A program made the position numbers and the translations under genes. Below the pieces are notes generated by a model. The model did not search any database and was not told where the DNA came from. It was given only the letters and a program-made list of their open reading frames with translations. From assembly GCA_905178155.1 (NCBI GenBank), contig CAJINV010000001.1:8693642-8757641 (forward strand): a stretch of 64,000 bases of DNA, in the 5' to 3' direction. Each line of letters begins with the position of its first letter. Position 1 is the stretch's first letter. The stretch is from Amoebophrya sp. A120. Its lineage: Eukaryota > Protista > Dinoflagellata. Below are positions 5,004 to 61,850 of the stretch, piece by piece.

Positions 5004-6154
5004 TCAGGGGCTTGTGCGGATGAAACGACGCCGATAAGCTGGTTCATAATAACTAGCCAAGTAGCTGCTGTTCGTGGAAGATGAAAATGCTACAAATGAA
5101 TGTGCGGCACGTAGTCTGGTGTTTTCACAACACGGACTCGGACGTTGCTTTACATCGGCGGAAAATAAATGCACATGATAAATCATAATCAAGTTTGTTA
5201 CAGGCGGCAGTGAATTGAGGCGTTTCATCGACCTGTGCTGATGTGACTTTTATCTTCCGGCTTGTCAGCGGCGTCGTCTGCAAATATGCCACGAAAGTTC
5301 AAAGTGATACGGATGGATAAGAACGTAGTATGTTCTCAACCTCCACTGGAAAATGACTTCATTACAGCTTCAAAATGATGGATTGTCTGCCTAGTGACGC
5401 AGTTGCAGCTGCGCTTTTATTGCGGAAATGCAAACAATTTCGGTTAAAGTCTATGTCGTGCATGTCTGGTTTTGTCTTTGTGCTGGACCGTGCGCGCTTG
5501 CGCAAAAACAAAATCAAAAGCATCGAGTGGTGTTATGTTAATGCGAACAGAGATTGATCCACAAATGTGATCCAGGTGATGAAGGATGGAATGTAGTGTA
5601 TACTAGTTAATAAACGGAAGCGAAGTAGTGATGAAAGTGGAACGCGATGGATAGAAATCGCGGATGCAGATGAAAGGTGGAAGTAGCAATGAAGGTCGGT
5701 CACTGAAATGAGAGATCCCTCGGATACAGATCGTGAAGGGCTGAAATGAGCCCAGGAAGTATTGGAATTGGCTGTATTTTTTTGCGCTCCCTGATGCCGA
5801 TATAGATTACTTCCCGAGAAGCCAAAAGAACAAACTGACAAAAATGAAAAAATGCGAGATGCTGGCAACTTCATCTGTGGTGATCATCGACATACAGCCC
5901 GATTCTGTAAGTAAGTAATTATTGTTTTGTTGTTTATTGTGTATAATTCATTGGTTTTGGATTTGGTTGTGCCGGTTTTGTTTTTTGACCACAAAAGATT
6001 CAAATTAGTGCACCAAAGATTCTATGTTTGTGAGCCATTTCGTATAAAGCTACCTCCTTGCTGCGTGAGCAAACGTTTGTAAAGACATTTCTACATGATC
6101 TCGAGATACAGTTTAAGTAATTCCCCCAAAGACCAAAAGATCCTAGACTATAAA

Positions 6155-15367: not shown

Positions 15368-16913
15368 CGTAAGGCCAACGGAAAGTCTAGCTGAGACAAC
15401 CGCTAAGCGGTGGTATTTCGATAAGAAAGTAGGATGCTATGCTTGCAACTACAACGTGTTTTTCAAGATACAAGATAACTGTTGTAGCAGGTTCCGGCGG
15501 GATTGCTTATAGTAATAAAAATGTCGTGCATCAGGTGCTCCATCATGGTCCCATTTCCCATGGCGCCTTTGCTTCCCACTCGCAACGAGAGGGTGGACCA
15601 AGTGCTACATCAGCTGCTGATTATCCTTTTACCCTTGTATTGTCACTTATTTCTATTTTTCGAATGCGATGCCACTGACGACAACGTCTGCCTCTACCAT
15701 GGACCGGTCGAGATGAAATTTCGACCAAGCAGTCGCAACAAAGTGATTAAGATTATGCATGCTTGTTTACGAAGACAACGATATACTAATATTTATTAGG
15801 GAAGACGCCTACAGTGTTGCTACATCACGGTTGATACGTTCGAGACCAACTACTGGTCGATTAGTTAAGGAATTCGCTTTTCCTTCTTGTGGGACGTGCC
15901 GCAGGGCAAGCTCGTAGCCGACGTCTGATTTCTACCTACTAGGTTTCTTTTCCATTACAAGATGAGGCGTTGCGTTGGATAATAGTCGCATTGTTTTGTT
16001 GCTGGTATGAGCGCTTGCGTTGGCCAGGTACAGATGTTTCTCTATCTTTTCAGATTTGTGACCTTTTTTATATTTACTGTGTTACGGTTACGGTAACGGT
16101 TTCTCTTTCTGTTTCTACCTTGGAGTAGAGAACGCAAACTTGTTGCTCCGGGACTTTTTTTTCCGTTTACAAAACTTGTTGAGAACCACACTTGTTGAGA
16201 TGATTTACAAATTGAAATCCATAGTTAAATAGCAACGATGAAGATCTCTTTTATTGGTCAGGAAAGGGGGAACTCAATACAAAGAGTTAGTAGTGGTCAA
16301 CGCTGTGATTTCTCATTACTGGTTGCACTCCCTGTCCCTGTGTACCAGTACCAAGGTGTTGACTGAGAGGACGCAGATCATGTTGGTGCTAGAAGAGCGT
16401 GTAGTAACGTAGAGAGTTGTGGTGAGGATTTGGATTTCTTGCACTTGGCAAATTCAGGCCTGAGTGAGATCGTTCGGCTCACCGAAAAATGGAAATGAGG
16501 AGGATCCTGCTTCTACTAGCGGAAAATCTGTCAGAGATCCGCAGACAAAGGCTCGGCTCGCGCTGAGGATCATAGGAAAAGGAGATTCGGGGCGAATCCT
16601 TTTCGTAGCCCACGAGGAGCAAGGAAGCTCGGGAGTGATTTCCGAGTAACATCCTTAGTCAATATTGCCATTCTGCACTCGCCTTTTTCATGAAGCGCCA
16701 CGATATATTATCACAGATATTATGTTGCTCGTCAAATCGAACTCACCGTTTTATTTTAATTCTTCCAGGGAGCATGCTGGCCTTGGCCATATCGACATGA
16801 GAACTTGTTGGTAGAGAACGAGCCGAGCACAGATATCTCCATAGCCTCTAAGTTGGTATAGATATGCAGCATCAGTGGTGACGCGAACCAATACTATAGA
16901 AATCGAACCAATT

Positions 16914-18068
16914 ATGGCGATTGACAGGGAAGTGCAGCCGCAGCCCTGCGTTGTTGCCCTCGATGGGCTCTCCGATAACGCTGAAGCGAGAAAGGGGGAA
17001 GCGCAGCAGAAACGTTTTGAAGTAGATGAAGTTGTTGAAAACGATACCAATTCAGATGCCAGTAGCGACGCTCCCTTCGACTTGTTCGCAGAAGATGTCG
17101 ACGCGGCGGCAAATGAGGCTGACTCCTACACACACACAGAAATAATCAGTGCGGACGGACCGCAGTTAGGTGTTGCGAGTCTGGGGATGATTGACGACGT
17201 TCGGCATGCAAAGGAAATAAACCAAAACAGTAGCGGCCCGCTCTCTGGAAGTAGATCATCTTCACCAAGATGCAGTACAGCACGAGACAACCTCGCTACT
17301 GATGACAATCGCCGCGACGCGCTATCGTTGTCGCTCCGCATTAACCCGTCCCGTTCTTACGTGTGGCCGTCCGCGCGGCTCCTCGCGGAGTTTCTGCTTC
17401 AAAACCCAGCTGTGTGCGCGGGCCAGCGGGTTGTCGAGCTCGGGTGCGGACTAGGGCTCCCCTCTTTCGCGGCCGCCGCCTGCGGGGCCGCGTACGTCCT
17501 CGCGACCGACTTTTGCGAGAGGTACCTGCGGACGTTGGAGGCCGTGCGAAGTGTGAATGGGAAGTTTTCTGCGCGGCAGCTCGACACCCAACGGGTGGAT
17601 TGGTTCGACGCACTGAACCGGGAAAGGAAGCTTGCAGAACAGCATTATGATGAGGATCAGGCCGAGGATGAACAGGGGTTCGAGTGGAAGAGGCAAAGCG
17701 ATGAAAATAATAGTAGTACGTCGACCTCCACTCCCTGCAAGGTCACCGAGATGAGACGCCTACACGAAACTTTTTCTGCCTTCGACGTTTGTCTGTGCGC
17801 CGACGTGAACTACAACCCAAACACGGTGGAAGCGCTTCGCGCCACCGTCCGGGCCTCCGGAGCCGAGGTGGTGGTTTTGATTTCGCGGGAACGACGGGCC
17901 GGGTTCGACGACTTCGCGGAGTGTCTGCGCGAGGATTTCGAAATGTGCTTGCTGGATCGCTGTCCGGTCGTTTCCACACAGCACCAAATCGGCACCACCG
18001 AGGACGAACGTCACAGCCTCTTTCTATTTGCAGGCAGGCGAGTAAAGAGTGTCAAAAACAAAATTTAG
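16914..18068 (+). CDS. Methyltransf_16 family (METTL21-like) protein methyltransferase
   Basis: Motifs YVWPSARLLAEFL, VVELGCGLGLPS (motif I), LATDF, VDW and DVCLCADVNY. Confidence 0.85.
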   Translation: MAIDREVQPQPCVVALDGLSDNAEARKGEAQQKRFEVDEVVENDTNSDASSDAPFDLFAEDVDAAANEADSYTHTEIISADGPQLGVASLGMIDDVRHAKEINQNSSGPLSGSRSSSPRCSTARDNLATDDNRRDALSLSLRINPSRSYVWPSARLLAEFLLQNPAVCAGQRVVELGCGLGLPSFAAAACGAAYVLATDFCERYLRTLEAVRSVNGKFSARQLDTQRVDWFDALNRERKLAEQHYDEDQAEDEQGFEWKRQSDENNSSTSTSTPCKVTEMRRLHETFSAFDVCLCADVNYNPNTVEALRATVRASGAEVVVLISRERRAGFDDFAECLREDFEMCLLDRCPVVSTQHQIGTTEDERHSLFLFAGRRVKSVKNKI

Positions 18069-18794: not shown

Positions 18795-21562
18795 ATGATG
18801 TGGCGAAAAATACCGAAGGGCACGTGGATCATTGGGTCTTGCTTAGCCCGCTTCTTCATGTCCCTCTGCCTCACATTGTGCTTGCCGTTTTACTTATTTG
18901 CGCGGATGAACCTCCACGGAGGAGGAGGGCGGTATCGGGCCAGTATTTTTGCTGCAGCCGAGATTGCAGTCCATGACGCATCCTTCGAGCAATTATCACG
19001 AGCGCCAGCGACACAAGACAGCACGCCTGCAAGCTCGGAAAGAAATGACTGGACGCCACAGCAAGTCATTGGCACCATCTTCGACGTGCTACGTGAGAAG
19101 AAGCAGACGGAGCGCAGGACTTCCAAAAAAAAGGAAGCAGCGGGCAGTTTCGAAAACAATAGGAGAACACACCCACCAGAAGACCCTTTAGCGCAGGAGC
19201 AGAGTTCCTGGTCGGGGTCGTCGTGGTGGTCATTAGCTGGTGTCGATTCCGGAGCTGTTTCGCGTCCTGCTGCACAGCTGCAGCAGCTACCGCGAGCTCT
19301 ACAATTAGCCATGAGTGAATGCGCCCCGGGCAACACGGTGAATAGTTGCTTGACTGATCACTGCACTCGATACGCAGACCGGACCCACTGCCTGGAAAAC
19401 GGGGGCGCGGACCGAGATTGTTGTGCGTTGGCGGGCACTGGCAGTTGCAAGAACACCACGGCGGCCAAATTTGTACAGATTCGGGCAAACAATCGGGAAA
19501 ACGTCTGTAACACAGGGGTGCGGGCCATCTCCACCTGCTGCATTCCCGAAGCCACCATTCTTTCGGGGGCCTACGTGGTGACTGCGGAGGACCGGGCGCG
19601 ACCGGTGTCCCGGTCGGACCGCTTGACGTGCAACGACGAGTGGTGCCGATCGCCCGGCTTGGCCCCCGCGCAATACGACTGCTGGGCGGGGTCCTCGCGC
19701 GAGGCCTGCGACTGTGACCAGGGCAAAGCGAAGCTGACGGGGCTGACCTCGGAGTACGGAGGGGACAAGTACTACAGCTACACCTGCTGTTTGGGCGACG
19801 ACTCCTCCCTATCAAATGCAAAAATGTCTGGGTCTGGGAGGATGGTGGAACTTGTCGTGCTAAATCTGAATCATGCAAGAAATCTGTGCTGCGTGATTAC
19901 CAACAGCCGTCATTTTTTACCAAGTTGAGAGGGAATTTCTCATGCAGGATAGGCATGCACATGCTAGAGATCTCACAGAGTTTGTTATGCTAGGCGCTGC
20001 ATTCCAGACCTCATGAGTCATAGAAAACCTGCATGACAAACCGTAGGGAACAGTCGTGCTCGATAATCAAAGCGACATAGAGTACAGATTCGGTTATTCG
20101 TGTTAGGCCGTAGAAGGTTGCCACGTCGTTAGCGCAAGGTTTTGACTAGGTATGAAAGAAATTAAAACATGGGAGAAAAAAGCACAACAATGATACCAGC
20201 ACCTCCCCAATGAAGGGGAGGTGTGTGCATGCTATTCCTTTTTTACCATTCCAAAGACTTAGGCCGTTCTTTTTTTCTTGAAATGGGGGAAGTCCTAGTA
20301 TGAAGTCCTAGTTAAGACACATATGCATAAGCTGCTCCAGGTCAGGGCAACTATCACAGACAAAAGTGCAGATGGAGCATGGGTGTTCTACTTGTGTGAA
20401 CTGTGATAGGCCGTGGCTGCAGGTTTCCGACTACCAAAAGACTCTGAATGCGCGGCACTAAACATTCAGGCGGGTAACAACATCTGCTATGTGATACGTA
20501 TTCTGAGAAAGTCTCTCGCTGCATTTTCGAATGTGAAGCTATGTATGAGCACTGGCTTGGAATAGCAGATATGTATGAAGATTAATGTGATGAAAAATAT
20601 GAAGTGTCTTAACAAAAGAAGGACGTGACTTCTTTTCATATTTGGGGATCTAAAGAGAAGGAAAGGGCTCACGATGCTACCTATATACAGGAGCAGCTAA
20701 ACAGGACTGAAGGGCTGGACGGGACAGGTACTGACGTCGAAGCGCTCTGCGCCTGAGACGTCACACATAGCAACAGAGATCAAACGGGCGCCGCGATACA
20801 TAAACGTGCCGATGTTGCTATCTGGGACAGACATGCAGTCGCATCGCACAACCGGGAGAAAGTAGTTTTTTTTGCATGTGGGTAGCCGTGTATAGAGGCC
20901 GAAATCCCCTCCCGCATTCAAAAAAAAAAAAAAAACCTGCATGACAAACCTGGCAATCTTCCAGACCCAGACATTTTTACAGTTGATACTCCCTGGTCGG
21001 CCGAGAGTGCGGGGACTTCAGTGAGCTGCCGGTGTGGGCAGTGCTTATCATCATCCTAGCCGTAATGTGCCTATGCTGCGGCACGTGCGCGGTTATCTTC
21101 TGCGTCTGTTGCCGCCAACAGAACCAAAATCCTCCGGGGCACACATATTACAACACGGGGGCCCAGCCACAGGTGGTGTACGGTGCGGGGCAGCAGCAAA
21201 TGATGATGCAGCACCAGCAACAAGCTTTCGGCGGACCATCTTCGTACGGGCCGCCTCCACCTGGAGGAATGCAGTACCAGACGTACGCAGGCTATCATGC
21301 TCCAGGAGGGCCTGGCAGCGGCCAGCCCCCGATGGTGATGTACCAGATGAACAACGCGCAACCCGTGATAGGGCCGGACGGGCAATTGCTATATCCCATG
21401 CAGCAACAGCCGCAGCCAGAGGGCGGCGCGTTTTTTCCTCCGGTAGGCAGTGGTGGCGGCAGTGGTGCCGAACAGCCTGGCCTGGTAACACACGGCAGGC
21501 CTGTGTCCTCCGATCAGCAGCCAAGAGGCCCCATCGTCGTAGAAATGAACCGCAAGTATTGA
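18795..21562 (+). CDS. Cys-rich type I membrane protein with a Pro/Gln/Gly-rich cytosolic tail; exons 18795-19809 and 20994-21562
   Basis: Removing introner A plus one TSD gives ...TCCLGDDSSL|VGRECGDFSELPVWAVLIIILAVMCLCC, in frame with ORF 21032. Confidence 0.8.
19810..20988. mobile_element. Introner A (TIR family 1), about 271 bp core plus a nested insert
   Basis: TATCAAATGCAAAAATGTCTGGGTCTGG...CCAGACCCAGACATTTTTACAGTTGATA; TSD CTCCC at 19805-09 and 20989-93. Confidence 0.92.
20043..20931 (+). mobile_element. Poly(A)-tailed retroposed insert (889 bp) nested in introner A
   Basis: 19-bp direct repeat AAAACCTGCATGACAAACC at 20024-42 and 20932-50, with an A-run at 20920-35 running into the second copy. 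Confidence 0.85.
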
Positions 21563-22451: not shown

Positions 22452-25400
22452 ATGGTGCTCCACCGCCCAGCGCCCAGCGCGGATCAAGATGACCCGGGCG
22501 CCTTTTCATTCGCAAGCACGAACCGGTTGCATGCGCGCCGGGGTCCCAAAGACCCGGACACGATCTTCGTAGGGGAGACGCCCGATTTTGTGTACTTGAT
22601 TGATTCGCTGGGTAATGTGTTGGTGGACGATATCCAGGAAAAAAAGTGTGTAAGTGTAACTTTCTTTGAGACACAGCATCACAAATTTGCTCTACATGAC
22701 AAAGAAAACCTGTCATGCGTGGCTTATAAGGGAAAACACACATGGAAAGAGGACTTCGTGTCTGTCTGGCATGACAGGTGTAACTCTGTTGCATGCTCTG
22801 CAACACAAGTTTACACTTACACAGTTTTTTTCTTGCATAGACGACGATCTCCGTCTGGTACAGCCCGAGGACTTGACCTGGTCGTCGCAGGGAAAGGTGC
22901 AAGTAGTAAACAAGCGGAAACTATCCTGAGTAAAAACGTACCCACACCAGAGTTGTAATGCAGATTTGCAAAGACAGGAAGACTTGTAATGCGCATCCCC
23001 ATGAGAGCCATTTCCAATCGTGTTTTGGAATTTGTGATGCTGTGAACAGGATGAGCAGATGAATCTGTGACGCGGCTGCACTTGCTAACCTGCACTACGC
23101 TGCAGAGTGCAGCTTGTCATGCGTGACTCACAAAACTCCGAGGTTTGTGTTGCAAAATCCTCATCCTGACTCTGGTGTGGGTACGTTTTTACTCAGGATA
23201 GAAACAAGGAAGTAAGAGCAGCAGACCGGCACGTCCCACCGCGGGTTCTTTCGGGCTGCTGCAGAGCCGAGGCGACGCTGTGGTTCTGGACGAAGCGCAC
23301 GCGAAGAAGCGACCCCTGGTCAAGGACGTGTCGGAGCAGATTGCAGCGGACTTTGCGAAGTCGGTGAAGCAGTCGACGAAATACCTCGGATATGCGCCAA
23401 CGGTGTCCACGGGCGGGTTCCAGGCGAAGCCTGTGTTTCCCCAGCAGCACACGCAGTACAGTGCAACGGGACAGTGGAATTCGAAGTTGTTCGATGACTA
23501 CTTGGAGGACACCAACGCACGTCTCATGCGGTCCGTGGAAAACATGCGGCAAAGTCAGAACGGCGACTATTCAAGGCGAAAAGCGTGGCGGTTTTTTGTC
23601 TCAGAAGGGCTATGCCATTTTTGCATGATGGTTCTTTGATAATCTCCTCGCCATGATGTGCTGCTGTCAGCTGATTCGATTGGATTTTCAATCGCGTGAC
23701 CGCATTAAATTCTGATACATAGATACAACAATCAAAGGTCATGCTGGTCATCCACTCAACCATGCAAGCATAAGCAACGCCCGAGGTGTACTAGTTCAAC
23801 GCATTATTTTGCTTCTTGATTGCAGCAAACCGGAGGGAACGACACACTTGACTCCTCGCGCACGGCAACGCGATGGGGCCTATTTCAAGGTACTATGGCA
23901 AGAACGGATTTTCTCTTTTTTGCAAAGTTGTGGCAGTTGTACGTACAAGTCGGGGGAGACTTCTGAAGGCCCATACCCACTATATTTTTTTATGTCATTC
24001 TGCTTTACATATGTCGTGCGTAGCAGTTATATCAATTTACATGATCAAGCAAGAGGGTTGCACACTCCGACGTCGGGCTGGCTGCCCGATGTCGACCAGC
24101 TTCCGCTGGTTCTCTGTCCTCTATCTAGAATCTCCGCTTCGTCCGGGCTTGCCTGGACTCGGCGTTTTTTCCCCGCCCTCCCACCCAGCTGCTGCAGCTT
24201 CATTGCGAGATACCCTGCGGCACCCCCCGCAAGCCTCCCCAGATGTTCGGTGGGCCATGTCGTGTTCCACGGCTTGGCCCACCTTCACGTCCGGGGCGTG
24301 GCTCTGTGGGGTTTGAGAGCTTGGCTCGCGCGGCTTGCTACTTGTAGCTCGCTGTGCCGGCCGGGTTCTCTTCTTGCTCGCCAGTGTGACCGTCGCAGGG
24401 CGTCCCGCGACGAGGACTGCAGCGCGCGTCAGCACTGCCTTCGATTATCATCGTTTCCGCGCGCTTTCGCTCGTTGGGTGAATTGCGCCAGGAATGTGAA
24501 TTTATATGTCGTGCGTAGCAGTTATATCAATTTACATGATCAAGCAAGAGGGTTGCACACTCCGACGTCGGGCTGGCTGCCCGATGTCGACCAGCTTCCG
24601 CTGGTTCTCTGTCCTCTATCTAGAATCTCCGCTTCGTCCGGGCTTGCCTGGACTCGGCGTTTTTTCCCCGCCCTCCCACCCAGCTGCTGCAGCTTCATTG
24701 CGAGATACCCTGCGGCACCCCCCGCAAGCCTCCCCAGATGTTCGGTGGGCCATGTCGTGTTCCACGGCTTGGCCCACCTTCACGTCCGGGGCGTGGCTCT
24801 GTGGGGTTTGAGAGCTTGGCTCGCGCGGCTTGCTACTTGTAGCTCGCTGTGCCGGCCGGGTTCTCTTCTTGCTCGCCAGTGTGACCGTCGCAGGGCGTCC
24901 CGCGACGAGGACTGCAGCGCGCGTCAGCACTGCCTTCGATTATCATCGTTTCCGCGCGCTTTCGCTCGTTGGGTGAATTGCGCCAGGAATGTGAATTTAT
25001 ATGTCGTGCGTAGCAGTTATATCAATTTACATGATCAAGCAAGAGGGTTGCACACTCCGACGTCGGGCTGGCTGCCCGATGTCGACCAGCTTCCGCTGGT
25101 TCTCTGTCCTCTATCTAGAATCTCCGCTTCGTCCGGGCTTGCCTGGACTCGGCGTTTTTTCCCCGCCCTCCCACCCAGCTGCTGCAGCTTCATTGCGAGA
25201 TACCCTGCGGCACCCCCCGCAAGCCTCCCCAGATGTTCGGTGGGCCATGTCGTGTTCCACGGCTTGGCCCACCTTCACGTCCGGGGCGTGGCTCTGTGGG
25301 GTTTGAGAGCTTGGCTCGCGCGGCTTGCTACTTGTAGCTCGCTGTGCCGGCCGGGTTCTCTTCTTGCTCGCCAGTGTGACCGTCGCAGGGCGTCCCGCGA

Positions 25401-28400
25401 CGAGGACTGCAGCGCGCGTCAGCACTGCCTTCGATTATCATCGTTTCCGCGCGCTTTCGCTCGTTGGGTGAATTGCGCCAGGAATGTGAATTTATATGTC
25501 GTGCGTAGCAGTTATATCAATTTACATGATCAAGCAAGAGGGTTGCACACTCCGACGTCGGGCTGGCTGCCCGATGTCGACCAGCTTCCGCTGGTTCTCT
25601 GTCCTCTATCTAGAATCTCCGCTTCGTCCGGGCTTGCCTGGACTCGGCGTTTTTTCCCCGCCCTCCCACCCAGCTGCTGCAGCTTCATTGCGAGATACCC
25701 TGCGGCACCCCCCGCAAGCCTCCCCAGATGTTCGGTGGGCCATGTCGTGTTCCACGGCTTGGCCCACCTTCACGTCCGGGGCGTGGCTCTGTGGGGTTTG
25801 AGAGCTTGGCTCGCGCGGCTTGCTACTTGTAGCTCGCTGTGCCGGCCGGGTTCTCTTCTTGCTCGCCAGTGTGACCGTCGCAGGGCGTCCCGCGACGAGG
25901 ACTGCAGCGCGCGTCAGCACTGCCTTCGATTATCATCGTTTCCGCGCGCTTTCGCTCGTTGGGTGAATTGCGCCAGGAGTGTGAATTTATATAATGTTTG
26001 TTCCACCTTGTCGAAAAGGAAAAAAATCGGAATCAGGATCGCGTTGCGAAGAACCGCGAGCGCATTCGCGGTGCCCGGTTTGCGTATTTTGCCCAGCAAA
26101 ACATGGACGAGTTGGAACTTTTGGAGAAGGCACCGGACTGGGTGGCGGAGGGGAAGCTTTCGGAGTGGGACGAGCACCGGCACTTCCAATCGCACAATGA
26201 GGACGGGAGTCCGAAGAGCTACGCCACGCTGGCCGACGAGTTTATGAAGCACAACCGCGACGTGCCGATGACCAAGCGGAAGATGCGTGCACTCGTGGAG
26301 GCCCGCGAGGCGGAGAAAGTGGAGGAGCTCGCGCGGCTTCGCCAGGCGAATGAAAAAATGCTCTCGCTGGACAAGCCCACGGTGGAATCCCGGAAGCGAT
26401 CGTCAAAATTCGGATTGGAAACGGGTTCGGGTGCGTTCGAGCGCCGGTACAGCCCCGCCAACCGGCTCGCCCCCGGCCCGGTGGTGGCCGACCTGGCCGT
26501 GCAGGATCTGCGGGCCGCCGCGGAAGCGCTCGAGCGGGAGGATATCAAATGCAAAAATGTCTGGGTCTGGAAGGATGCAACTTGTGATGCGCATTTCACA
26601 ACACACAAAAATCTCTCATGCATAGGTAGCAAAAGCTGCCCACTTTCTGTCACCAAAATGGGGGATTTGTCATGTTGATTTGGCATTGCTGAAGCTTCTC
26701 GAAGCCTGTGATGCTAGAGCTTCCATGCCAGACCTTCTGTGTCATGCAAAAACAGTATGACTCTTCCAGACCCAGACATTTTTACATTTCATAGAGGACG
26801 AGCTCATGCAACGCAGAGACGCCGCAGTCGGAGTGGTCGCGCGGCGCCCCAAGTCCGCACCCGCGGTGGAGACTACTACATCCAGTGCTGCGGAGGGTGC
26901 AGCTCCTGTGCTGGACGACACGATGAACAACTCGCTGAATTATACCATGAAGAGTGGCGCTGGTGCACTTTCCACGTCTAGCAGCAAACAACCCGGTGGA
27001 GGAAGCAGATCTAGTGGTCTCACGACCCGCCAGGGGGAGAACATCAAGATGGCGTATCACCACTCCCGGGGGATGGTGAGACCCCTGGGTGCACCCGGGT
27101 GGAACTCGTGTCCCCGGTCCGCCAAGACCTTTGACGGCATCGCACCGGCGCACCACTGGAAGAAGCGCCAGGGTTCGCGCCGCCCGGATGGAACCAGTGC
27201 GTACGAGCGGGTCGGTGGGCAGCATCACCGCATCCCGACCTCCGCCTCCGACGTCGGCCAGCACTTCCCGAGGGGCGCCGCCGACCGCCTGCGCCAGGTC
27301 ATTTTCACCCGAGCAAAAGCCAAGGCGAGACCGCCGGTTGCAGTGCCGGAAAGGCCGCTATTCACGCAAGGCGGAACACTGCTCAGTGAGCAGCCCCGTT
27401 TCTTGTCATACCAGAAATCGGTGGAACCTGGCGAATTAGATGTAGCGGAACACGAGGCAGCGGCAAAAGATTTTGAGAACTACGCCAACGAGAACAACAA
27501 CGTCGTTGACCGACAGGACGTCTCGGGCTATCGGGTGGTAACCAAACAAGACGACATCACCTCTCAAGGCTACGACGAGGGAGATATGGCGAGTGGCGGA
27601 TCACGAGGAGATTTGCTAAAATCCGGAACGTCAGGACCCCTGGATAAGAGCGGTAAGTACTTGTGTTGAAGACCTTTGTTGTTTAGTCTTCCTCTTCTAA
27701 AAATTCAGTCCAAAGCATGTACAGCTAAGTTCAAGGTCGTTCTTAGGAGACAGACTACTTAAATGTTTTTACGTGCACACAACGAAAGGAAAACTGAAAC
27801 TTTTCAGTAATCGTAAAAATATCAACGGCAGATCATGTTACTTTATCCTGATACTCGACTGATAGATTTTCTGCTCCTTCAGGTACAGGGAGGAACAAGA
27901 GTAACGTGACCGTCAGTGAAGACATTGACGCACTGATACAGCGCACGCTCGAAGGCCACTTGCGTAAAGCGATAGCGGAAGAGGGGCCGGACTCGGAGCG
28001 CGCGCTCGCCATATCCATGAAGTTGGGTCTAAGCCGGACACCGAGTCGGAAGCCGCCGTCTTCTTCAAAGGCCTCGGTGCTTGGGAAAGAGCCCTCGGGC
28101 GCAGACTTTCCGGATTCTGATGACGTCCCGCCCACGACGGAGGAGGAAACCATCTTTGTGCCCCCGACCAAACAGGAGGCCAGGGTGAGTGCCGCGCAGG
28201 GACGCGGAAGCAGCACAGCTAGTGCCGCTGATCGCGGAACGACTGGTAGCAAAAAAAGCGCTTCTGCTAGTGGTGCTGCAACACGACCTGCCGGCGTCAA
28301 AAAGTACAAGGAGCTGGGTGCTACAGTGGACGCCAGGGAAGTAAGTGAGTTCAACAGAACGAGCAAAGAACCAAGAAATGCCAACGACGCGGATGAGCAA

Positions 28401-35944: not shown

Positions 35945-36044
35945 NNNNNNNNNNNNNNNNNNNNNNNNNNNNNNNNNNNNNNNNNNNNNNNNNNNNNNNN
36001 NNNNNNNNNNNNNNNNNNNNNNNNNNNNNNNNNNNNNNNNNNNN
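35945..36044. other. Assembly gap (100 N)
   Basis: Run of N. Confidence 1.
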
Positions 36045-45552: not shown

Positions 45553-46500
45553 ATGGCGATTCTGTCCAAGTTGAAGCACGTGACCGCTGCCGCCCTTTTC
45601 CTGGGCACGACGATGCAGCAAAACTTCCGACTGGCAGCTGCGGAGGACGCCGCCGCGGCGGACGACAAGGAGCTTGACGACCTCGATGACGAGTCCACCG
45701 CCGCTTCGAGTGTCCCCGGCGAGCCGCTGGTGCTGACGGACGCCTCGTTTAAGAGCGAGTTGGACAAGGCCCTGAAACCGATGTTCGTCAAGTTTTACGC
45801 GCCCTGGTGCGGGCACTGCAAGGCGATGGCGGCGGACTGGGACAAGCTCGCGGAACAGGCGACGGGGGCGGTGATCGCGAAGGTGGACGCGACGGTGGAG
45901 CGGGAAGCCGCGAACTTGATGAAGGTGCGGGGCTTCCTATGCAAGAAAAAAACTGCGTGAGTGTAACTCTGTTTATGCAGAACATGCTACTACGCTTACG
46001 CCTGTCATGCCAGACAGCCATGAGTTCCTCTTTTCATGCGTGTTTTCCCTTACAAGTAGCCACGCATGACAGATTTTCTCTGACATGTAGAGCAAATTTG
46101 TGATGCTGTCGGCCAAAGATAGTTACACTAACACAGTTTTTTTCTTGGATACTTCCCGACGCTGACCCTGTTCGACAAGAACGTGATGTACAGCTACAAC
46201 GGGCCGCGGACCCTGGACGCCATGCTGCAGTTCGCGAACGGCGGCTACAAGGCGGGTAGTAGCAAAAACCTGCCCTGGAACGAGTCCATCGTGGACAAGG
46301 TGAAACAGCACGTGGAGGAGTACTTCACCAAGGTCGGCCAGATCATGGCCTTCGAGCCGACCATCCTGCCAATTTGCTTCTTCCTCGGCTTCTTCTTCGC
46401 GTTTATTTTCTTCTTCCTCTGCTGCGGCTTCTCCTCCTCCTCGTCCCCGGTCGACAAGAAGGAGCTGAAAAAGGCGGAAAAGGCAGCCAAGGCGGAGTAA
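45553..46500 (+). CDS. PDI/TMX-like thioredoxin-domain membrane protein; exons 45553-45937 and 46157-46500
   Basis: FVKFYAPWCGHCK and IAKVDAT. Removing introner H restores VRGFPTLTLF...YNGPRT. N-terminal signal-like segment and a C-terminal TM helix. Confidence 0.92.
45938..46151. mobile_element. Introner H (TIR family 2), 214 bp
   Basis: TATGCAAGAAAAAAACTGCGTGAGTGTAACT...AGTTACACTAACACAGTTTTTTTCTTGGATA; TSD CTTCC. Confidence 0.95.
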
Positions 46501-50144: not shown

Positions 50145-53038
50145 ATGCGTTTCAGTGTAGTAAAGTCGCGCTCGCGCCTGTGGCTCCGCACAGTGGCTGG
50201 CATTCTTGCGACCGTGCACGGACTGAAGCTGCATGGATCTTCTCGAGAGGACGACGGTAGCATCTTTCGCGCGAAAGTCGAGGTCGCTAAAGGCGACATC
50301 ATATGGCTGCAGCATGTCGAGCCTGGATCCACCTCTGGTAGCGCTACCACAGCAAAAATTCGGTTCGGCCACGGCTTCTCGTCCGGGTCAACAGCAGTCG
50401 CCTCTTCTCTTTCTGGTCCAGGATCCGCTCCGCGAGTCGAGGACTTGGAGCCGCCTGTTTGTCTAACTTGTCCACTGTGCACCGAGCCGTCGCCGCTCGA
50501 ATACGATTGGCGCTTGCTGGCCAGACAGTCAGAACAGGCCAAGCTGGAGCAAGAAAGTATCGAGTGAGCCCGTATAATCCGTTCTTTTTGGTGTCGTCTA
50601 ATCATGTACTTAACCACACTAGTTCGGCGATGAAGATGATCTTCTACTTCGGAGGCCACAAAAAAATGTAAAAGATCCAAGCGACGGGGACTGAGATGTG
50701 AGATTGTAGCGTGAAGAAGTAGTTTAAAACGCGAACGAACAGAGACGACGGAGCCGATCGAGCAGCTGTACTACATGTACAACAGCGACGCGGTGCTGCG
50801 CCTGCCTCTGCGTGTTTCCCCGGGCGATGGCGTCGTCTACTTTTCGGTGCTTAACGCGGCAAAGATGGGAGGCATCGGTTTCGGCGAGTTTTTTCCCCGC
50901 GGCTTGGCGAAGAAGTATCTGCTGTACCAAATCGCCATCCGCTGGCCGGCGGAGCACTCCTTCGCGTCTTGCGACAGCAAAAAGGACTGCTTGGAATTGC
51001 AACTGCTGCACGTGGCCGAGGACCTGTCGCAGTCCTGGGTGAGTTTCGGGTTCTCACCGGCCGTATCAACAGTAAAAATGTCTGGGTCTGGAAACTTGTG
51101 ATGCTGGGTGGCGTCTCATGATGAGGCTACAGATGCTGGCTCAGCATGACAAGTTTCTGAGCTCCTACGTGTTGCCTATTCTGCATGACAAAGCGCGCTT
51201 CTGCATCACAGAAAAACGGAGCTCTCGGGTAACTTGCATGACAGATTTAAGAGTCATGCCAGACAAGCATGACAAACATGAATTCTTCCAGACCCAGACA
51301 TTTTTACAGTTGATAGGCCGTGGAGCCGTTGCGGCCGAGTTTGCTCGCGCAGCTCACGCAGATCAACCCAAGTACGGGGAACCGCCTGCACAGCGACTTG
51401 GCGCCGGAACTGGCGGAGAACGAAGAGCTCCCGATTGGCACGATCGATTTGGAAGCCTTGTTCGCTCCTTTGAGAAGGGACGAAAAAGACACGAGTGCGG
51501 TTGGTCTTACACTTCACGCGAACGGCACTAGTACTGCAGCGAATAGAACCAGTCGCATCTACGCCGCGCAGAAAAGCAATGAAACGACCACGAGTGGGAA
51601 TTATCTGGAGGCAATAAACAACTCGACCGCAGTAGAGCCAGCGCCGCCTGTGAAGGCAGGGAACAAGGACAAGAACGCAGTTGAGTTCGTCACCTACGAA
51701 GACCCGGGAAGTGGTACGGCCGGCACCGACAACGTCGCGCCGTTCACTCCAACCCGCTGGTTCGTCCGAGCAAAAGAGGTATTTCCGATGAAGGCTACCG
51801 TGTTCGAGAAGATCAAAGCTTTTATCGCACTTCACAAAGCCGATGGGAACAGTAGGGCGTCGGTTGCTCCGAAGCCTGTATTGAAAAGTGTCGTCGGCAG
51901 CATGAGTGGTCCGGAAAGTGGTGGGAACGCTGTGATGTTTTACGAGCAGACGAAATCAGCAGAGCACAAAATAAGCAAACCTCCTACAGTGGCGAAATCA
52001 TCATTAGCTTCCGGGAGTTCTTCTTCTACCTCTCCTGCGATGCCATCGTGCGTGCCAGCCAAACTGATGCCCTCTGCGGCCGCCCGACCGCTTCTTGCCG
52101 CAGTCCCGCGCGTGGCGCCGATTAGCGGGAAGCTGCAAGGCGTGCAGGACATTTTCAATCGAATCGAGGCGGAGAACGCAACGAAATCAAAGCCAGGTGC
52201 GGCCGCAAGCGAAGACGAGCCACCTAGTAGTGCGGCTGGAACAAATACAAGCGCCGCAGCCGCCGTTCAGCTTGCGCTGCCGCCCAAGCCGGAAGATATC
52301 ACGATCGACTGCACGACGTGTGGCGCCCGCGGGATTGCCTACCGCCATCCGAACGTGATTTCTCGGAGCCGCACGAACCGCACCGCGGAGGACCTCGCAG
52401 AGCACTGCAAACTCGTACAAAGCGCACAAGCGGTGGTCAAGGAAAAGCAAAACAAGGCCTTGGCGATCGCAGTGGAGCGGGCCCGATGCAGAAATTTGAT
52501 CGACAGCCGCAACTACAATCCGTACGCCCCCTATGCGCAGTGCAAGCACGCCATTCAAAGGCTCGAGAAATCATACGCGGACGCAAGCGACGAGCTGACG
52601 AAAGCCCAACGGGAGAAGGATCGGATCAAGAGTGCGAAGGCCGGAAACATCGCAAAGGCGCAAGACATGTTGGATGCGGCCAAAGAGGCCGCAACAGGCG
52701 ATGACGCAAAGACGGTGACCGAGGCGCCATCCGAGCCCGGGGTGGTGATCCCGGAAGAAGAAACCTCCACGACGCCCGCGCCGGCAGCCACTACCGACGG
52801 CAGCATGATCTCGAACCTGATGGGTGCAGGGGCAGATGCGAACGAAAGGGAATATCACCCGCCCGAGGACCCGCTGGTGTGTCCGGAAATCTTTTTGAAG
52901 CCGAAAAAGACGAACTTCGGTTGCGCGTTACAGAATGTCGACCCCTTCGTGATGGATAGTGCAATGACCTGTGCAGGAGAAGTGCCGAGTGACGCCAATT
53001 TCCGGTTCGGAGATCCGTCCGCTGACTTGGTTCGCTAG
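50145..53038 (+). CDS. Probably secreted hypothetical protein; exons 50145-50556, 50743-51063, 51321-53038
   Basis: Signal-like MRFSVVKSRSRLWLRTVAGILATVHG. GT-AG intron 50557-50742 and removal of introner C give 2451 nt in frame. Confidence 0.7.
51064..51315. mobile_element. Introner C (TIR family 1), 252 bp
   Basis: TATCAACAGTAAAAATGTCTGGGTCTGGAA...TTCCAGACCCAGACATTTTTACAGTTGATA; TSD GGCCG; restores FSPAV|EPLRP. Confidence 0.93.
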
Positions 53039-54100: not shown

Positions 54101-56915
54101 ATGGAGCTGGCCATCAGTGAGCAGCAGACCCGCGAGACGCGGCGCGAGCGGCAAATGCGCAAAACTTTATCTACTCGACGGAACGAACAGTACTTGACCA
54201 ATTTGGAGAAACGGAATGAAGAAAATCGAGAGCGGCTGGTCGACCGGGCGGAAGCAGACTTCTTCCCCGCGCACTTGCTGAAGGACGTTTCCCGCGTTGA
54301 AAGCGACGAGGAAGAAGACGACGCAGAAACCAGTGGCTCTTTCTATCCCCCCGCAGCCGCGGACGACACAGACCTGAGTAGCTCTTGTACTGCAGGAGCG
54401 AACCACCAGGAAGATTCGAACTCGTCTCGGCGCTCCGCCAGCTGCTCGAGCGCGGCGAATGCAGCAGGGGGTCAGCAACATCAAACAGCGTCCGCCTTGT
54501 CTACTTTCCGAACCCCATTCACCAGGACCACAAGCAGTCAAATACTAAAACCCGCGATTAACCACAACTCGCTGGTGATTAAGAGCCTGGCGGGCGTTGC
54601 GAATCCGGAAGAGCTATCAAATGTAAAAATGTCTGGGTCTGGAAGAGTCATGCTGTTTTTGCATGACACAGAAGGTCTGGCATGGAAGCTCTTGCATCAC
54701 AGATGTCGAGAAGCTTCCGCAATGCCGAATCCGCATGACAAGTCCCCTATTTTGCTGACAGAAAGTGGGGAGCTTTTGCTACATATGCATGAGAGACTTT
54801 GCTGTGTTCTGAAATACGCATTACAAGTTGCATTCTTCAGACCCAGACACTTTTGCATTTGATAAGAGCGGGAGCAGCGGGAACTGGAGTTGCGGGAGAT
54901 CTACCTGTATTCTGTGCAAAAGTATCGTACTCGTACAAATGCAAGCCTTGCATTACAAATCTTGCTGCCAAGGCAAATCTGCATGACAAATTTAATTTCT
55001 CATGCTGAGGAAATTTGTAATGCATTTATACGAGTACGATACTTTTGCACAGCATAACCTGCGAAAAGGCATTCCCTTTCCGGACGACGAAGTCTTGCAT
55101 ACGAACCTCGCAGGAGCTACCACATCGAGCAGTTTGATCAGCTATCAAATGCAAATATGTCTGGGTCTGGAAGAATAGGACTTGTGATGCTAACTCTCGA
55201 TCATACAAAAAACTGTATTGCATGACCAGCAAAAGATGCTCAGATTTGTGCAACCCGGATCGGGCATTTCTCATGCAGGATAGGCATGAGAAAGCCTTCG
55301 CGAGGGCTGTGATGCTAGAGAATGCATCACAAGCATCGTGGGTCATGTACAATTTGCATGACAAACACCCAAATCTTCCAGACCCAGACATATTTGCAAT
55401 GCATATCAGCGACCGGACGAGCAGCGAGGTGCAGCACTACACCATGGAGGACGACTATGGAACTGTCAGAATCAAAATTGACAAGGTCGAAAAATCTGTG
55501 ATGCATAAAATCGATACCAGTTGGAGCCTCAGTTTGTAAGTGGCGCATGACAAATTTCGGGAGCAACCAAATCCAGTCTGTCATGCTGTTTGGGCAAAGA
55601 AGACTGCTCCTGTCGTGCTACTCTGGCAGCACATTGCATATCCCTAAACACACTGACAATCAGTCTCATTTTCCTGCTCCCCAATACAGGCCTCCAGTGC
55701 CCTGCATTTTATGCATGAGAAATTCTTTCTGCGGTAGCTTCACGACCTGGTGGCCGAACCATCTGCGGTGAGGTGCCCTTACAGGTTGTGTAGTGGTTTC
55801 GGTCGGTTTAGCATGAGAAATTCTTTCAACTTTGTCGATTTCGATCCTGACACATCCATAACGACGACGACGATCTGGAGGACTGCTCGGCCGGCGCTGA
55901 ACTAGTCGACGTCTCGCAGAGCGTAGTAGAGCAGGATGAGGGTCGTGGCGGCTTGAGAACAAGTGGCGGCACCACTTCTACTGCGCCCGGGGCAGCTGCA
56001 CCTCCTGCAGCTGAGCAACAAAAGACGACCGAGGGCTTGCTCCTTGCTGCGAAAAAATTGATATCGGCGACGAGTGACAGCTGTACAAGCACCACGGAAA
56101 ACGATGAAGCGCAGGTTCCAACAACAACTTTTTGTTCTCAAACCAGCACTGGAAGTTCTTCTGGGATTGTACCAGGAAATTATAGAGGCGCTACAACTAC
56201 TTCTACGCCACCACCTGTGCACCAGCAGAACCGAGATGGGCGTTCGGGAACGTCCTCATCTAGCGAACAAACGACAACAACCTACGAAAGTTGTGTGGAG
56301 GGTGGAACTATGGTAGCTCCAGCTGTACCACATCCGCAATCTACTTCTGACGCAGACTTCCTGCCAGCCCAGGAGCCGGCGAAAATGCAAGCGCAGCGCC
56401 CGACAAAACTCCCGCCGTTTACTGCCGCCGTGACGCCGAAAACTGCGACCTCGACAGGGTCGTCTTCAAAACGCCGCGACCAACCTCCGCCGCGCTTTTA
56501 CACCCCATCCTCCGGCGGGGCCCCCGGAGCAGATCGGGGGGACGAGTTGTACAGAGGAGGAGGCGTAGACGAGGACGATGAATTATCGTGCCAACAGCAA
56601 ATACCGGTTCGGAAACAGTCCGACTTCGCCTCACCGGCATCGAGCTACAAGACCACGCACAGCGGCGCCACCTCAGCCGCTGTGTCCCCGGTAAAAGTGC
56701 TAGCTGCAGTAGAGATGAAAATGAATACAAACGAGATCGGGAAGAACAAGCTTTTTGTACAACCTCCAGGAGCTGCCCCACCTCATCTCTCGACGACGGG
56801 TGCTGGGGTAGTTGCTTGTGCTGGTGTAGACAACTCGAATAAAGAGCTGCCCGACGACGTGGAGGTGGTCAAGACGCTGCCGAACATCGAGGAGGACCCT
56901 TGGTGGAAAGCTTGA
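54101..56915 (+). CDS. Hypothetical Ser/Thr-rich protein split by four introners; exons 54101-54614, 54870-54907, 55062-55142, 55411-55455, 55866-56915
   Basis: Sequential removal of D, E, F and G (each with one TSD) gives 1728 nt with no internal stop. Confidence 0.85.
54615..54864. mobile_element. Introner D (TIR family 1), 250 bp, inverted copy of B
   Basis: Family-1 TIRs; TSD AGAGC; interior aligns by eye to the reverse complement of 26543-26793. Confidence 0.93.
54908..55056. mobile_element. Introner E (TIR family 4), 149 bp
   Basis: TATTCTGTGCAAAAGTATCGTACTCGTACAAATGCA...TGCATTTATACGAGTACGATACTTTTGCACAGCATA; TSD ACCTG. Confidence 0.93.
55143..55405. mobile_element. Introner F (TIR family 1), 263 bp
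   Basis: TATCAAATGCAAATATGTCTGGGTCTGGAAG...CTTCCAGACCCAGACATATTTGCAATGCATA; TSD TCAGC; interior related to the core of A. Confidence 0.92.
55456..55860. mobile_element. Introner G (TIR family 5), 405 bp
   Basis: TATGGAACTGTCAGAATCAAAATTGACAAGGTCGAAA versus right-end reverse complement TATGGATGTGTCAGGATCGAAATCGACAAAGTTGAAA; TSD ACGAC. Confidence 0.9.
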
Positions 56916-58543: not shown

Positions 58544-58650
58544 AATATAGCCTAAGCCCACCTCGGTTGTATCTATCACGTAAGGTGAGGTAGAGCCGAG
58601 ACCATTTGTTTGAAGAAACCCGTTTTCCCCCGCAGTAGTAGATCTTCAAG

Positions 58651-59478
58651 ATGCAGCAGGTCCCTTGGTTGAAAGCGGTGGTGCAATTTTGGGCACTGTA
58701 CAAAGTTCAGCTGATACTTGCCGTCGTCGTGATTTTGGTGACGTGGTGGCTTGTATCCGGCTCTGAAAGCGAAGATGCCGACAGCAAAGGCGGCAAGGGC
58801 AAGAGCAAGGAGCGATTTGCTGTCTCTTTCTGTTTTCAAATACCACCTAATACGGCGAGTGGCGAGGAGGACGCAAATACGCCACTAGCGGTACAGTTGG
58901 TCAGCTCCCTGCGCAAAATCTACGAGAAAACGCGGAGGGGTGTATGGGTAGACACCTATGCTTTCGGACAAGTGAATAACGAGGGCGGGCAGGCCGCAAA
59001 AACAGCAGAGAAACTTCCAAAGGTAAAGCAGAAGGAGCTGATAGAGGAGGTGACAAATACATTGCAGAAACTCCATCCTACCGTAGAATCCCACAAGCTT
59101 CTGGTTTGCAGCTCCCTCGAGGGCCGTGTTTCCATGGTGCGGCAGCTCAACCCGGCACTGCACTTCGACACGAATTCTGACGTCGTGAAGCAGTTGCAAC
59201 AGGTCAAAGAGATGAAGAACAAAGTATTTCACATTCCGGTTTTTCTTGGCAATAAAGACGGAACAAGTGCAAGTGCATCCCCTTCAGACACGAGCGCATC
59301 TGATGCGTCAAGTGCAACATCAATCTGGTCAGCGACACAGGCCGTCGACTTCATGGAGTCGACTTTCGACCAAAAAGTGTTTGAGCTTCTCAACCCCAAT
59401 GCAGTGAAGCCAGAGTCGCCGGCAACGTCCTCTCCCGCGAGGTCGCCAAGAGAGGGCATGTTGAGCAGCGGTGCCTGA
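58651..59478 (+). CDS. PEX22: Peroxin PEX22-like protein
   Basis: N-terminal TM plus HKLLVCSSLEGRVSMVRQLNPALHFDTN, which resembles the plant-type PEX22 motif (KVLFCST.GR.SFVRQL.P.WH.DT). Confidence 0.7.
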   Translation: MQQVPWLKAVVQFWALYKVQLILAVVVILVTWWLVSGSESEDADSKGGKGKSKERFAVSFCFQIPPNTASGEEDANTPLAVQLVSSLRKIYEKTRRGVWVDTYAFGQVNNEGGQAAKTAEKLPKVKQKELIEEVTNTLQKLHPTVESHKLLVCSSLEGRVSMVRQLNPALHFDTNSDVVKQLQQVKEMKNKVFHIPVFLGNKDGTSASASPSDTSASDASSATSIWSATQAVDFMESTFDQKVFELLNPNAVKPESPATSSPARSPREGMLSSGA

Positions 59479-60299
59479 GTTGCTCACTTGAGCTTGAGGA
59501 TGCTGCTAGAAGACATTCTGCGAGCAGGAGGACCACTTGTAGTTCGAGTAGTTCTAGTTCGTACGCGGCGAAATGACTTTCTCGCAACAGTTTTTTACAT
59601 TGATAGCGACCAAAATTCCACATCCTGCACCCTTCTCTCATGGGGAGAACAAGTGTAGAAATTCAAATTCCGGCGTGAGCCTTTGTGCCAACAGTGTTCA
59701 TGCATCTTCGATCTTTCGTCATTTTTGTCGTGTTCAGCATCAATGGTAGTGAACAGAAAGCATCAATATCGTTTCGTAGATCCTTCGAGCAACTACAAGC
59801 GCGTCATGGAGCCGAGATTCATTCAGATTGGACCCATCGTTTTTTTTTTTTGGTAATCGCAGTCAGTCACTAAGCTCCAGTTTTGCGATCTGAATCACAG
59901 GGGGGGCGCCTCTTTCGTCGCCATCGTCAATTGGGTAGACCTCGTATTCTTGAAGAAAGTCGTAACTATCGTCAACTAGAGGTTGTTGGAGTGCTCCAGC
60001 CATAGCAAAAAATCTGCTCGTGGATAGTACAAGGCAAAGTTTTTGAGGTTGCAATGATATCGTCTGTCGAACGTAGTTTTCTTCGTTGCTCCCTGAAAAT
60101 ATATACTACAAGCCTCGGGGCGAGCCCTGCTGGGCTCGCCTGGGCTTGGGGTTGTCGGATGCGACCGGTACGTCGGTGACTGAGTAAACTGCAAAGAGAC
60201 AGGGAGAGGGGGCCCGATGTCAGTGGGGGCGTTGTGCGCGTTCGCGCGCCAGCCTTCGACAACCCCGTGCAAGCGGCTTGCCCCGCTCCGGCCTGCCAG

Positions 60300-61040
60300 G
60301 CCGACTCTAGCCTCTGCCTACCGGCTGCCGCTAACCTGCCGGCTGGCTGCAGCTAGCCCGCCGGCTGCCGCGCCCGCATGAGCCCCTGCCGGCCGGCTGC
60401 CGCTGGCCCCTACGGTCCTCCCTGCCGGCTGCCGCTGGCCCCTGCGTACCTCCCTGCCGGCTGCCGCTGGCCTCCGCCTGCCGCTGGGTGGCCCCTGCCT
60501 GCCGCTGGCTTCCTCCTGCCCGCCGCGGGCCTCGGCCTGCCGCTGGCCCCTTCCTGCCCGCCGCTGGCCTCGGCCTGCCGCTGGCCTCGGCCCGCCGGCT
60601 GCCTGCGTGCCGCTAGCCTTTGCCGGCGGGCCGCTACCCTTTGCCGGCGGGCCGCTAGCCTTTGCCGGCGGGCCGCTACCCTTTGCCGGCGGGCCGCTAC
60701 CCTTTGCCGGCGGGCCGCTACCCTTTGCCGGCGGGCCGCTAGCCTGTGATGCTTGCCGGCGGGCCGCTAGCCTGTGATGCTTGCCGGCGGGCCGCTAGCC
60801 TTTGATGCTTGCCGGCGGGCCGCTAGCCTTTGATGCTTGCCGGCGGGCCGCTAGCCTTTGATGCTTGCCGGCGGGCCGCTAGCCTTTGATGCCGGCGGGC
60901 CGCTAGCCTTTGATGCCGGCGTGCCGCTAGCCTTTGCCGGTTGCCGGCCGCTGGCCAGCCTGCCGACCGGCCACTGCTAGCCTTCCGGCTGTTGCTGGCC
61001 TACCGGCCGCCGCTAGGTAGCCTGCCGGCTGCCTTGCGCA
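60300..61040. repeat. GC-rich minisatellite; core of 21-, 28- and 24-bp units at 60609-60940
   Basis: GCCGCTA(G/C)CCTTTGCCGGCGG x6, then GCCGCTAGCCT(G/T)TGATGCTTGCCGGCGG x5, then 24-mers. The flanks are degenerate. Confidence 0.9.
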
Positions 61041-61161: not shown

Positions 61162-61449
61162 TCCCTTAAGCATCCCCTTAAAGATCCCCTTAAAGATTCC
61201 CCTAAGAATGCCCTTAAAGCTGCCCCTTAAAGATTTCCCCTTAAAAATATCGCCTTAAAACCTTTCGGCCTGAATCCATGCTATGGGCCCGGTTTTTTGC
61301 TGGGTGCCAAAACCTTGCGCCATCGCGCACAGAAAAACGCAGCATACCGCCGGTGCAAAAATGAACCCCCATGGTATGAATGATTCCGCGCCCCCCCTTT
61401 TTTTAAGGAGTTTCTTAAGGGGAAGTCTTAAGGGGAGGTCTTAAGGGGT
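61162..61449. repeat. Inverted arrays of CCCTTAA and TTAAGG(GG) units
   Basis: About 8 CCC(T)TAA units at 61162-61260 face 4 TTAAGG(GG) units at 61402-61449. Confidence 0.8.
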
Positions 61450-61850
61450 TATGTTCATAGGAATAAGTAAAGGGAATAACAATGTGAGGTTAGATTCAGA
61501 GCGGCGGCAGTTGCGTGGTTTTTTCAGATTCGCTTGTTAGCAGGAATAAAGCTCTGTTTACTATTAAAACCAAGATGTCCGTCCGGTTTCCCTGCCTTTT
61601 CGCGGTAACTGCAGAGTATTGACGGGCCCCTGCACCACCAGAAGCTTGCAGTTGCATGTACTGGGTTTTCGCGCTCTTTAGGTCGTGTTTACGCATTGGT
61701 ATAGTTCGACGGGTACGACGGAAATTGATATGGTGAAGAAATGAGCAGAGCAGAACCAGAACCAGAAGCCTGTCTTCCAACAGAGTCTGTAATCAAGGAC
61801 CTGTAGAAGTCCTGCCGCGACGAAGGAACCGCTGACGCTCACCACCAGCG

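Follow-up and report, generated by a model that had tools for sequence, protein, structure and literature searches.

The closest described counterparts of the elements studied here are the introners of Amoebophrya A120. According to the searched portions of Farhat et al. 2021 (PMC7789003), this genome carries about 30,000 repeated non-canonical introns whose ends read TAT, seven variable bases and AAA, which are bordered by short direct repeats, have no coding capacity and are removed without GT-AG signals. The same portions report no transposase in A120, reject general mobilisation by a transposase, and leave both the gain of these introns without a recognised transposase and their removal unexplained. 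Among DNA transposons, the BED domains of Hermes bind short repeats of the subterminal regions in either orientation and need an AT-rich tail, as described in a part of PMC10368747, and a part of PMC12730594 gives 5-bp duplications for hAT5. IS3EU elements have TA..TA termini (PMC10045372, in part), and fungal IS3EU/GingerRoot elements are given, in a partial account, ends of the form TAYGG..CCRTA and repeats longer than 30 bp.

Here we describe an internal motif of A120 introners, GCAT(G/C/T)ACA in its short form and GCATNACARRTT in its extended form, which is probably a docking site on double-stranded DNA for the copying machinery of these non-autonomous transposon introns and is likely unneeded for splicing. 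Neither the motif nor a spacing rule nor a selection test is described in the searched portions of PMC7789003 and PMC12130899, and an internal motif is likewise undescribed in the searched passages of the preprint of Roy et al. (10.1101/2020.10.14.339549). Literature searches for the motif and for internal motifs of Amoebophrya introns, with subscription journals outside their scope, found no description. Internal binding repeats are already known in DNA transposons; new in the literature searched are their sharing across families and the spacing rule.

Results

Elements of the window are introners

All ten elements found in the window, the whole 64-kb stretch of DNA that was analysed, are bordered by a 5-bp duplication, and at all ten an open plus-strand frame results when the element is excised together with one copy of the duplication. 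Seven of the ten are skipped exactly as element plus 5 nt in RNA-like contigs of one sample and are thus removed without GT-AG ends. The RNA nature of these contigs is a guess; nine elements, all but 26543..26793, were compared with them, two of the nine (22631-23200) lie outside their coverage, and four of the first six skip joints carry the flag 'between: not known'. The 252-nt element at 51064..51315 has C-type ends with terminal inverted repeats that begin TAT and span about 30 bp, and lies between copies of GGCCG (51059-51063 and 51316-51320). Here an RNA-like contig skips 257 nt, the element plus one duplication copy, and this excision opens the plus frame. This contig is likely spliced RNA, since a GT-AG intron of the host gene (50557..50742, plus strand) is missing from it too; this intron fixes the transcription of the host gene as plus and serves as a control without the motif. 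The raw RNA runs X10 and X11 were uninformative, as a 13-kb stretch drew 11 reads from the first and 10 from the second.

Four more elements have C-type ends: 19810..20988 (1,179 nt, duplication CTCCC), which is skipped as 1184 nt in X3, X4 and X5 from one sample, with no 1184-nt joint listed for run X1; 26543..26793 (GAGGA, three motif copies); 54615..54864 (AGAGC, four copies, skipped as 255 nt); and 55143..55405 (TCAGC, four copies, skipped as 268 nt). The second and third of these are 90% identical in opposite orientations. One family is formed by the elements at 22631..22839 (209 nt, GACGA, three copies) and 45938..46151 (214 nt, CTTCC, three copies, skipped as 219 nt). The others are a J-type element of 279 nt at 22922..23200 (GAAAC, four copies, all antisense to the host frame), an E-type element of 149 nt at 54908..55056 (ACCTG, three copies, skipped as 154 nt) and a 405-nt element at 55456..55860 (ACGAC, three copies, skipped as 410 nt).

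Two window elements contain inserts of their own. The element at 19810..20988 carries a poly(A)-tailed insert of 908 nt with a 19-nt duplication (20024-20042 and 20932-20950) that contains the motif, and is excised exactly from RNA-like contigs despite this insert; at L062:10001-10972 a different, 710-nt A-tailed insert occupies the same position. In 55456..55860 there is a 98-nt insert (55708-55827), and its 17-nt duplication contains a GCATGAGA variant.

In their ends, short direct repeats and non-GT-AG removal the window elements resemble the A120 introners of the searched portions of PMC7789003. Published A120 introner lengths of 106, 149, 208-214, 252-260, 278, 305 and 319-321 nt match those of the present families (Gozashti et al. 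2025, PMC12130899; 21 of the 58 A120 rows). TAT is invariant at both ends across 13 family consensuses, and positions 11-14 are A in 77-88%. The direct repeats are given as 3-5 nt in the portions of Farhat et al. searched, whereas 336 of the 382 copies counted here have an exact 5-bp duplication, a count made with an element caller that itself required 5 bp with at most one mismatch. Judged by length, ends and borders, the window elements themselves match known Amoebophrya A120 introners.

A motif concentrated in the elements

GCAT(G/C/T)ACA occurs 39 times in the window, whereas 100 dinucleotide shuffles gave 6.35 +/- 2.43 and none reached 39. A lack of enrichment over the background, which the preliminary description of this DNA had named as a finding that would count against it, is thus clearly not what we see. 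Thirty-five of the copies lie inside the ten elements, in 3,451 nt (10.1/kb), with two to six copies in every element. The other four are spread over 60.4 kb (0.066/kb), and two of these fall in GC-rich tandem arrays. Within 51064..51315, GCATGACA stands on the plus strand at 51144..51151, 51183..51190, 51236..51243 (the first of a right-end 31-bp pair) and 51267..51274 (starting 49 nt from the right end), and GCATCACA at 51203..51210, 33 bp before the next copy. These five positions and their spacings of 39, 20, 33 and 31 had been reported exactly; a further copy, the sixth, had been overlooked and lies on the minus strand (51097..51104), directly behind the left terminal repeat. The copies reported for the E-type element (54950, 54981 and 55016) and the J-type element (22954, 22985, 23033 and 23115) are exact as well. 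The view that the families carrying the motif are otherwise unrelated was overstated, since the window holds five end types and not about ten families. Five elements have the same, C-type terminal repeat, each matching another of the five at 67-90% across 143-264 nt, and two further elements form one family at 84% identity; the number of independent families in the window is therefore smaller than had been implied.

The window also includes host genes with Pfam matches to ubiquitin C-terminal hydrolase (6083-8104), lysine methyltransferase (16845-18068) and a Pex22 HAD-like domain (58642-59478). Four copies at 495-bp spacing, 100% identical over the 300 nt compared, occupy 24009-25793 and sit in an 843-codon plus frame without a Pfam match. 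GC-rich tandem arrays with 17-28-nt units, and after them an inverted pair of CCCTTAAG-type repeats, occupy 60285-60968 and 61163-61451, and a 100-N assembly gap lies at 35945-36044.

Breadth of the motif across families

Metagenome contigs scanned with the C-type end yielded at least 142 loci, merged to 128 pieces of 629 kb; all outside copies accordingly come from one related assembly and were chosen via the end of one family. The window and the listed loci together gave 389 called elements, seven of which, longer than 480 nt, were set aside. Among the matches listed there are 12 families of 3-173 copies with median lengths of 150-322 nt, and a 109-nt group. The motif is carried by 349 of the 354 copies in the 12 families of at least three copies (window and matches listed), at a density of 6.8-33.8/kb; shuffles have 0-1.1/kb and the DNA outside elements 0.28/kb (matches listed). 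Its family-weighted profile reads GCAT(G/C/T)A(C/G)A(A/G)(A/G)TT, and in 11 of the 12 families at least half the copies listed contain GCATGAC. Three full-length copies among the matches listed lack even the wider motif. In 179 candidate GT-AG introns without element similarity the motif stands at 0.4/kb, an indicative value only, as the crude gene parser behind this set was imprecise and missed the RNA-supported acceptor at 50742. Clustered motif matches outside called elements of the related loci mostly resemble decayed elements, judged by eye.

Some interruptions of about 100-170 nt, among them those in L010, L026, L043 and L051, may have GT-AG ends, resemble none of the called elements and keep motif pairs 32-33 bp apart; these are possibly old introners that became ordinary introns. 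An 866-nt TAC…GTA element with a near 5-bp duplication at L023:11405-12270, rich in internal repeats and lacking the motif, is an element of a different kind. At 378 insertion sites (window and L004-L145) the symmetrised target preference is T at -15 (0.51) and G at -13 (0.44), i.e. 15 and 13 bases from the centre of the duplication, with none within the duplication. Viral contigs gave three matches to the C-type end, none with a surrounding element, four to the motif pair, none similar to elements, and none to the F4/F7 end.

Spacing follows the DNA helix

Spacing was tested on one consensus per family, in 13 families including the 109-nt group. The best motif period is 10.5 bp (p=0.007 for same-strand pairs, p=0.003 for all pairs), which is the period of B-form DNA. 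Thirteen of the 41 same-strand pairs lie 30-33 bp apart, against 2.1 expected (p=0.001), and such a pair is present in nine of the 13 families, or in 12 when the wider motif GCA(T/A)NA(C/G)A is used. The remaining same-strand pairs are phased as well (p=0.001), and opposite-strand pairs show a 10.5-bp peak (p=0.001). When the set is reduced to the seven least related families, significance holds for the 30-33-bp pair (p=0.001), the same-strand period is weak (p=0.146) and opposite-strand phasing is not significant (p=0.27-0.34). The outermost wider motif begins 34-63 nt from the end at 25 of 26 ends, and motifs whose tail points to the end begin 40-41, 49-54 or 63 nt from it. The lengths of the elements are not convincingly periodic at 10 bp (R 0.12-0.39, 14 lengths), nor do they favour multiples of three (139/114/129). 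The period and the 30-33-bp pairs thus support the helical phasing that had been suggested for these sites.

The motif is selected while elements multiply

All families have TAT ends and the 5-bp duplication, and most have the A-run at positions 11-14. After masking of the motif, 13 of 78 family pairs still score z >= 2.5, the strongest being F4-F7 (z 10.5), F4-F5 (7.6) and F3-F8 (5.5); other pairs, F1-F2 and F5-F6 among them, no longer resemble each other. Two C-type interiors are homologous, with a 9-nt difference, about one helical turn, behind the end, and the C-type consensus interior is roughly palindromic, its two subfamilies aligning almost equally in either orientation. Between-family identity of the spacers within motif pairs is 41%, compared with 37% in shuffles. 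We infer that the families likely share common descent and that their spacers are nearly randomised. As a description of the families, 'unrelated' is correct only in part: the shared TAT ends, the duplication and the several pairs that align after masking count against it. The shared ends and duplication, the pairs that align under masking and the homologous C-type interiors would also fit a motif that is a mere remnant of common descent in neutral decay, an explanation on which the substitution pattern bears directly.

This pattern was determined on 21 subfamily trees with 316 copies, groups under five being omitted. On internal branches the motif core is substituted at 0.0038, compared to 0.024 at other interior sites, and at the tips at 0.031 compared to 0.077. 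Relative to expectations from matched trinucleotide contexts, there are 19 core substitutions versus 158 on internal branches (0.12) and 253 versus 593 at the tips (0.43); mutational bias as the source of the conservation is rejected by this context-matched control. The free fifth position of the motif behaves like the interior, with 0.027 versus 0.024 on internal branches and 0.083 versus 0.077 at the tips. Internal branches show a balanced turnover of motifs (17 losses, 11 gains), and the change at the tips is one-sided (187 losses, 7 gains).

The fate of the motif after insertion was followed in 509 full-length copies (of 520 loci) gathered via interior similarity alone, with mismatches at invariant end positions or within the duplication as age marks, which are noisy and sensitive to end misalignment and assembly error. 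The extra divergence of old over young copies, motif relative to interior, was 1.14 (0.78-1.78) and 0.90 (0.55-1.44) for all copies, and 0.87 (0.55-1.43) and 0.60 (0.24-1.07) for those in coding context. Since these intervals include 1 and exclude 0.12, selection on the motif acts mainly during element multiplication; the value of 0.60, one of four, allows partial constraint after insertion. The motif is thus protected in multiplying lineages and decays about neutrally in ageing copies. An apparent orthologous insertion at L086 proved to be a chance neighbour pair with different flanks and duplications.

Neutral decay, which the preliminary description had set down as a finding that would speak against its idea, does not occur along the multiplying lineages. 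A mere remnant would not leave the core at 0.12 of expectation next to a neutral free position, nor the motif intact between spacers hardly more alike than shuffled ones. We give this explanation almost no credence: it is refuted as stated, in that common descent is likely true and neutrality is not.

The motif probably acts as double-stranded DNA

Transcription direction could be called for 280 of the 389 elements and was unanimous in nearly every listed contig. Among the matches listed, 406 motifs are sense and 438 antisense, and none of the families shows a significant insertion strand preference (280 directed elements). Tip substitution of the motif does not differ by strand (0.034 versus 0.029, p=0.22). 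The J-type family, among the matches listed, carries 98 motifs on one strand and three on the other, yet its orientations to transcription split 14:15, and a strict sense motif is missing from 14 of its 29 copies embedded in ORFs; in predicted folds, J-type motifs show no motif-motif pairing. Together, the strand asymmetry of this family, its two-way insertion and the overall lack of strand bias exclude a simple RNA signal.

A motif acting in RNA, as a protein-binding site or through self-complementary pairing that stabilises an intron hairpin, would be in line with the roughly palindromic interiors of several families and with the 35% of motif bases that pair with another motif in predicted folds. 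Against these observations stand the J-type elements, nearly all in one orientation without motif-motif pairing and inserted both ways, the absence of an overall sense bias, and a 10.5-bp period that belongs to B-form DNA. The features of an RNA splicing cis-element are lacking, with motifs at 406:438, strand-independent substitution (p=0.22) and near-neutral decay. This possibility is very remote and already largely refuted. TGCATG may resemble RBFOX and ApiAP2 sites; the RNA reading fails the strand tests.

The preliminary description had suggested that the sites mark elements for removal from RNA. This is unsupported by the 406:438 distribution, the p=0.22 for strand and the loss of the motif in ageing copies at about the neutral rate. 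The suggestion can be recast as a redundant DNA mark that is read during transcription and recruits a non-GT-AG removal machinery, one intact site being sufficient. Such a mark needs no strand bias and would suit elements that are excised exactly without GT-AG signals; one strict motif or more survives in 365 of the 371 coding-context copies (six lack it), and the few short interruptions dissimilar to called elements retain 32-33-bp pairs. As each copy has 3-6 redundant sites, splicing may still depend on one or more of them. Single sites, on the other hand, decay about neutrally in ageing coding-context copies, and a need for one site leaves the near-invariant 3-6 phased sites of multiplying lineages unexplained; the three full-length copies without even the wider motif would also speak against it, provided that they are spliced. 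All told, we regard a redundant removal mark as very unlikely.

Discussion

The common trans-acting factor that had been proposed from the window is supported by the presence of the motif in all 12 families of at least three copies, by purifying selection and by both-strand occurrence, and its binding would be to double-stranded DNA. We favour a docking site for the copying machinery, in which a transposase DNA-binding domain (compare the subterminal repeats of hAT elements) or a partner protein would occupy several phased sites. The bound sites would share one face of the helix, and binding may help to bend an element of 110-320 bp, such that both TAT ends of the short element can meet. On this view the families are likely offshoots of a single transposon group: the spacers and inner terminal repeats drifted, and the motif with its spacing was retained by selection for copying.

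Most hAT elements duplicate 8 bp of their target. In the introners 0 of the 382 copies are exact at 8 bp and 336 are exact at 5 bp, the length that the caller selected, and in this they are like hAT5. They further share with hAT elements (Hermes, Ac and Tol2, as partially covered in PMC10368747) short repeats behind the terminal repeats, in both orientations and with an AT-rich tail. They differ in that an 8-12-bp motif is common to families with different inner terminal repeats and extends throughout the interior, with a fixed 30-33-bp pairing. The elements have the TA..TA termini of IS3EU/GingerRoot; IS3EU duplications, however, are usually 6 bp, and here 0 of 382 copies are exact at 6 bp, again with a caller that required 5 bp.

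By Pfam, no transposase was recognised in the 26 of 68 window ORFs searched, or in 105 of the 145 ORFs of at least 250 aa at related loci, overlapping antisense frames and loci from L068 onward being omitted. Long paired ends or an autonomous element were not found in the window and the related loci listed. These negative results, like the rejection of general transposase mobilisation by Farhat et al., weigh against a transposase docking on the motif. Two adjacent frames at L017:2635-6090 match C-5 cytosine DNA methylase.

A host chromatin or architectural protein could instead bind the phased motif and bend or expose the elements, with the result that carriers are copied more often. This would accommodate all selection and strand results, the sharing of the motif by families whose inner terminal repeats differ, and the failure to find a transposase in A120 that the searched portions of Farhat et al. 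(PMC7789003) report. It would also fit the ten inserts of at least 60 nt within elements, all ten of which are no more than 10 nt away from a motif centre, as compared to 44% of positions, though gap placement within repeats may inflate this closeness; five of the ten have 13-19-nt duplications overlapping the motif. The motif is, by contrast, at chance level in the host DNA of the window, with four copies in 60.4 kb, so that no host use of it is visible here, and clustered matches outside called elements mostly resemble decayed elements, judged by eye. We consider a host protein as the reader of the motif quite unlikely.

A broader scenario, unlikely in our estimation, would have one protein read a family-independent, helically phased code in all A120 introners and mobilise tens of thousands of them via the internal motif and not via their own terminal repeats. 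This protein, host-kept or an unrecognised enzyme, may also guide non-canonical removal, and retro-elements would home on the motif to hide in introns that are spliced away.

The gain of A120 introners and their removal are separated as problems by this evolutionary pattern. As the motif likely belongs to copying, the ends and the duplication, not the motif, are where a signal for removal would have to be looked for. For the copying side, the selected and phased motif offers a bait for pulling down the missing factor and a signature by which autonomous partners may be recognised.
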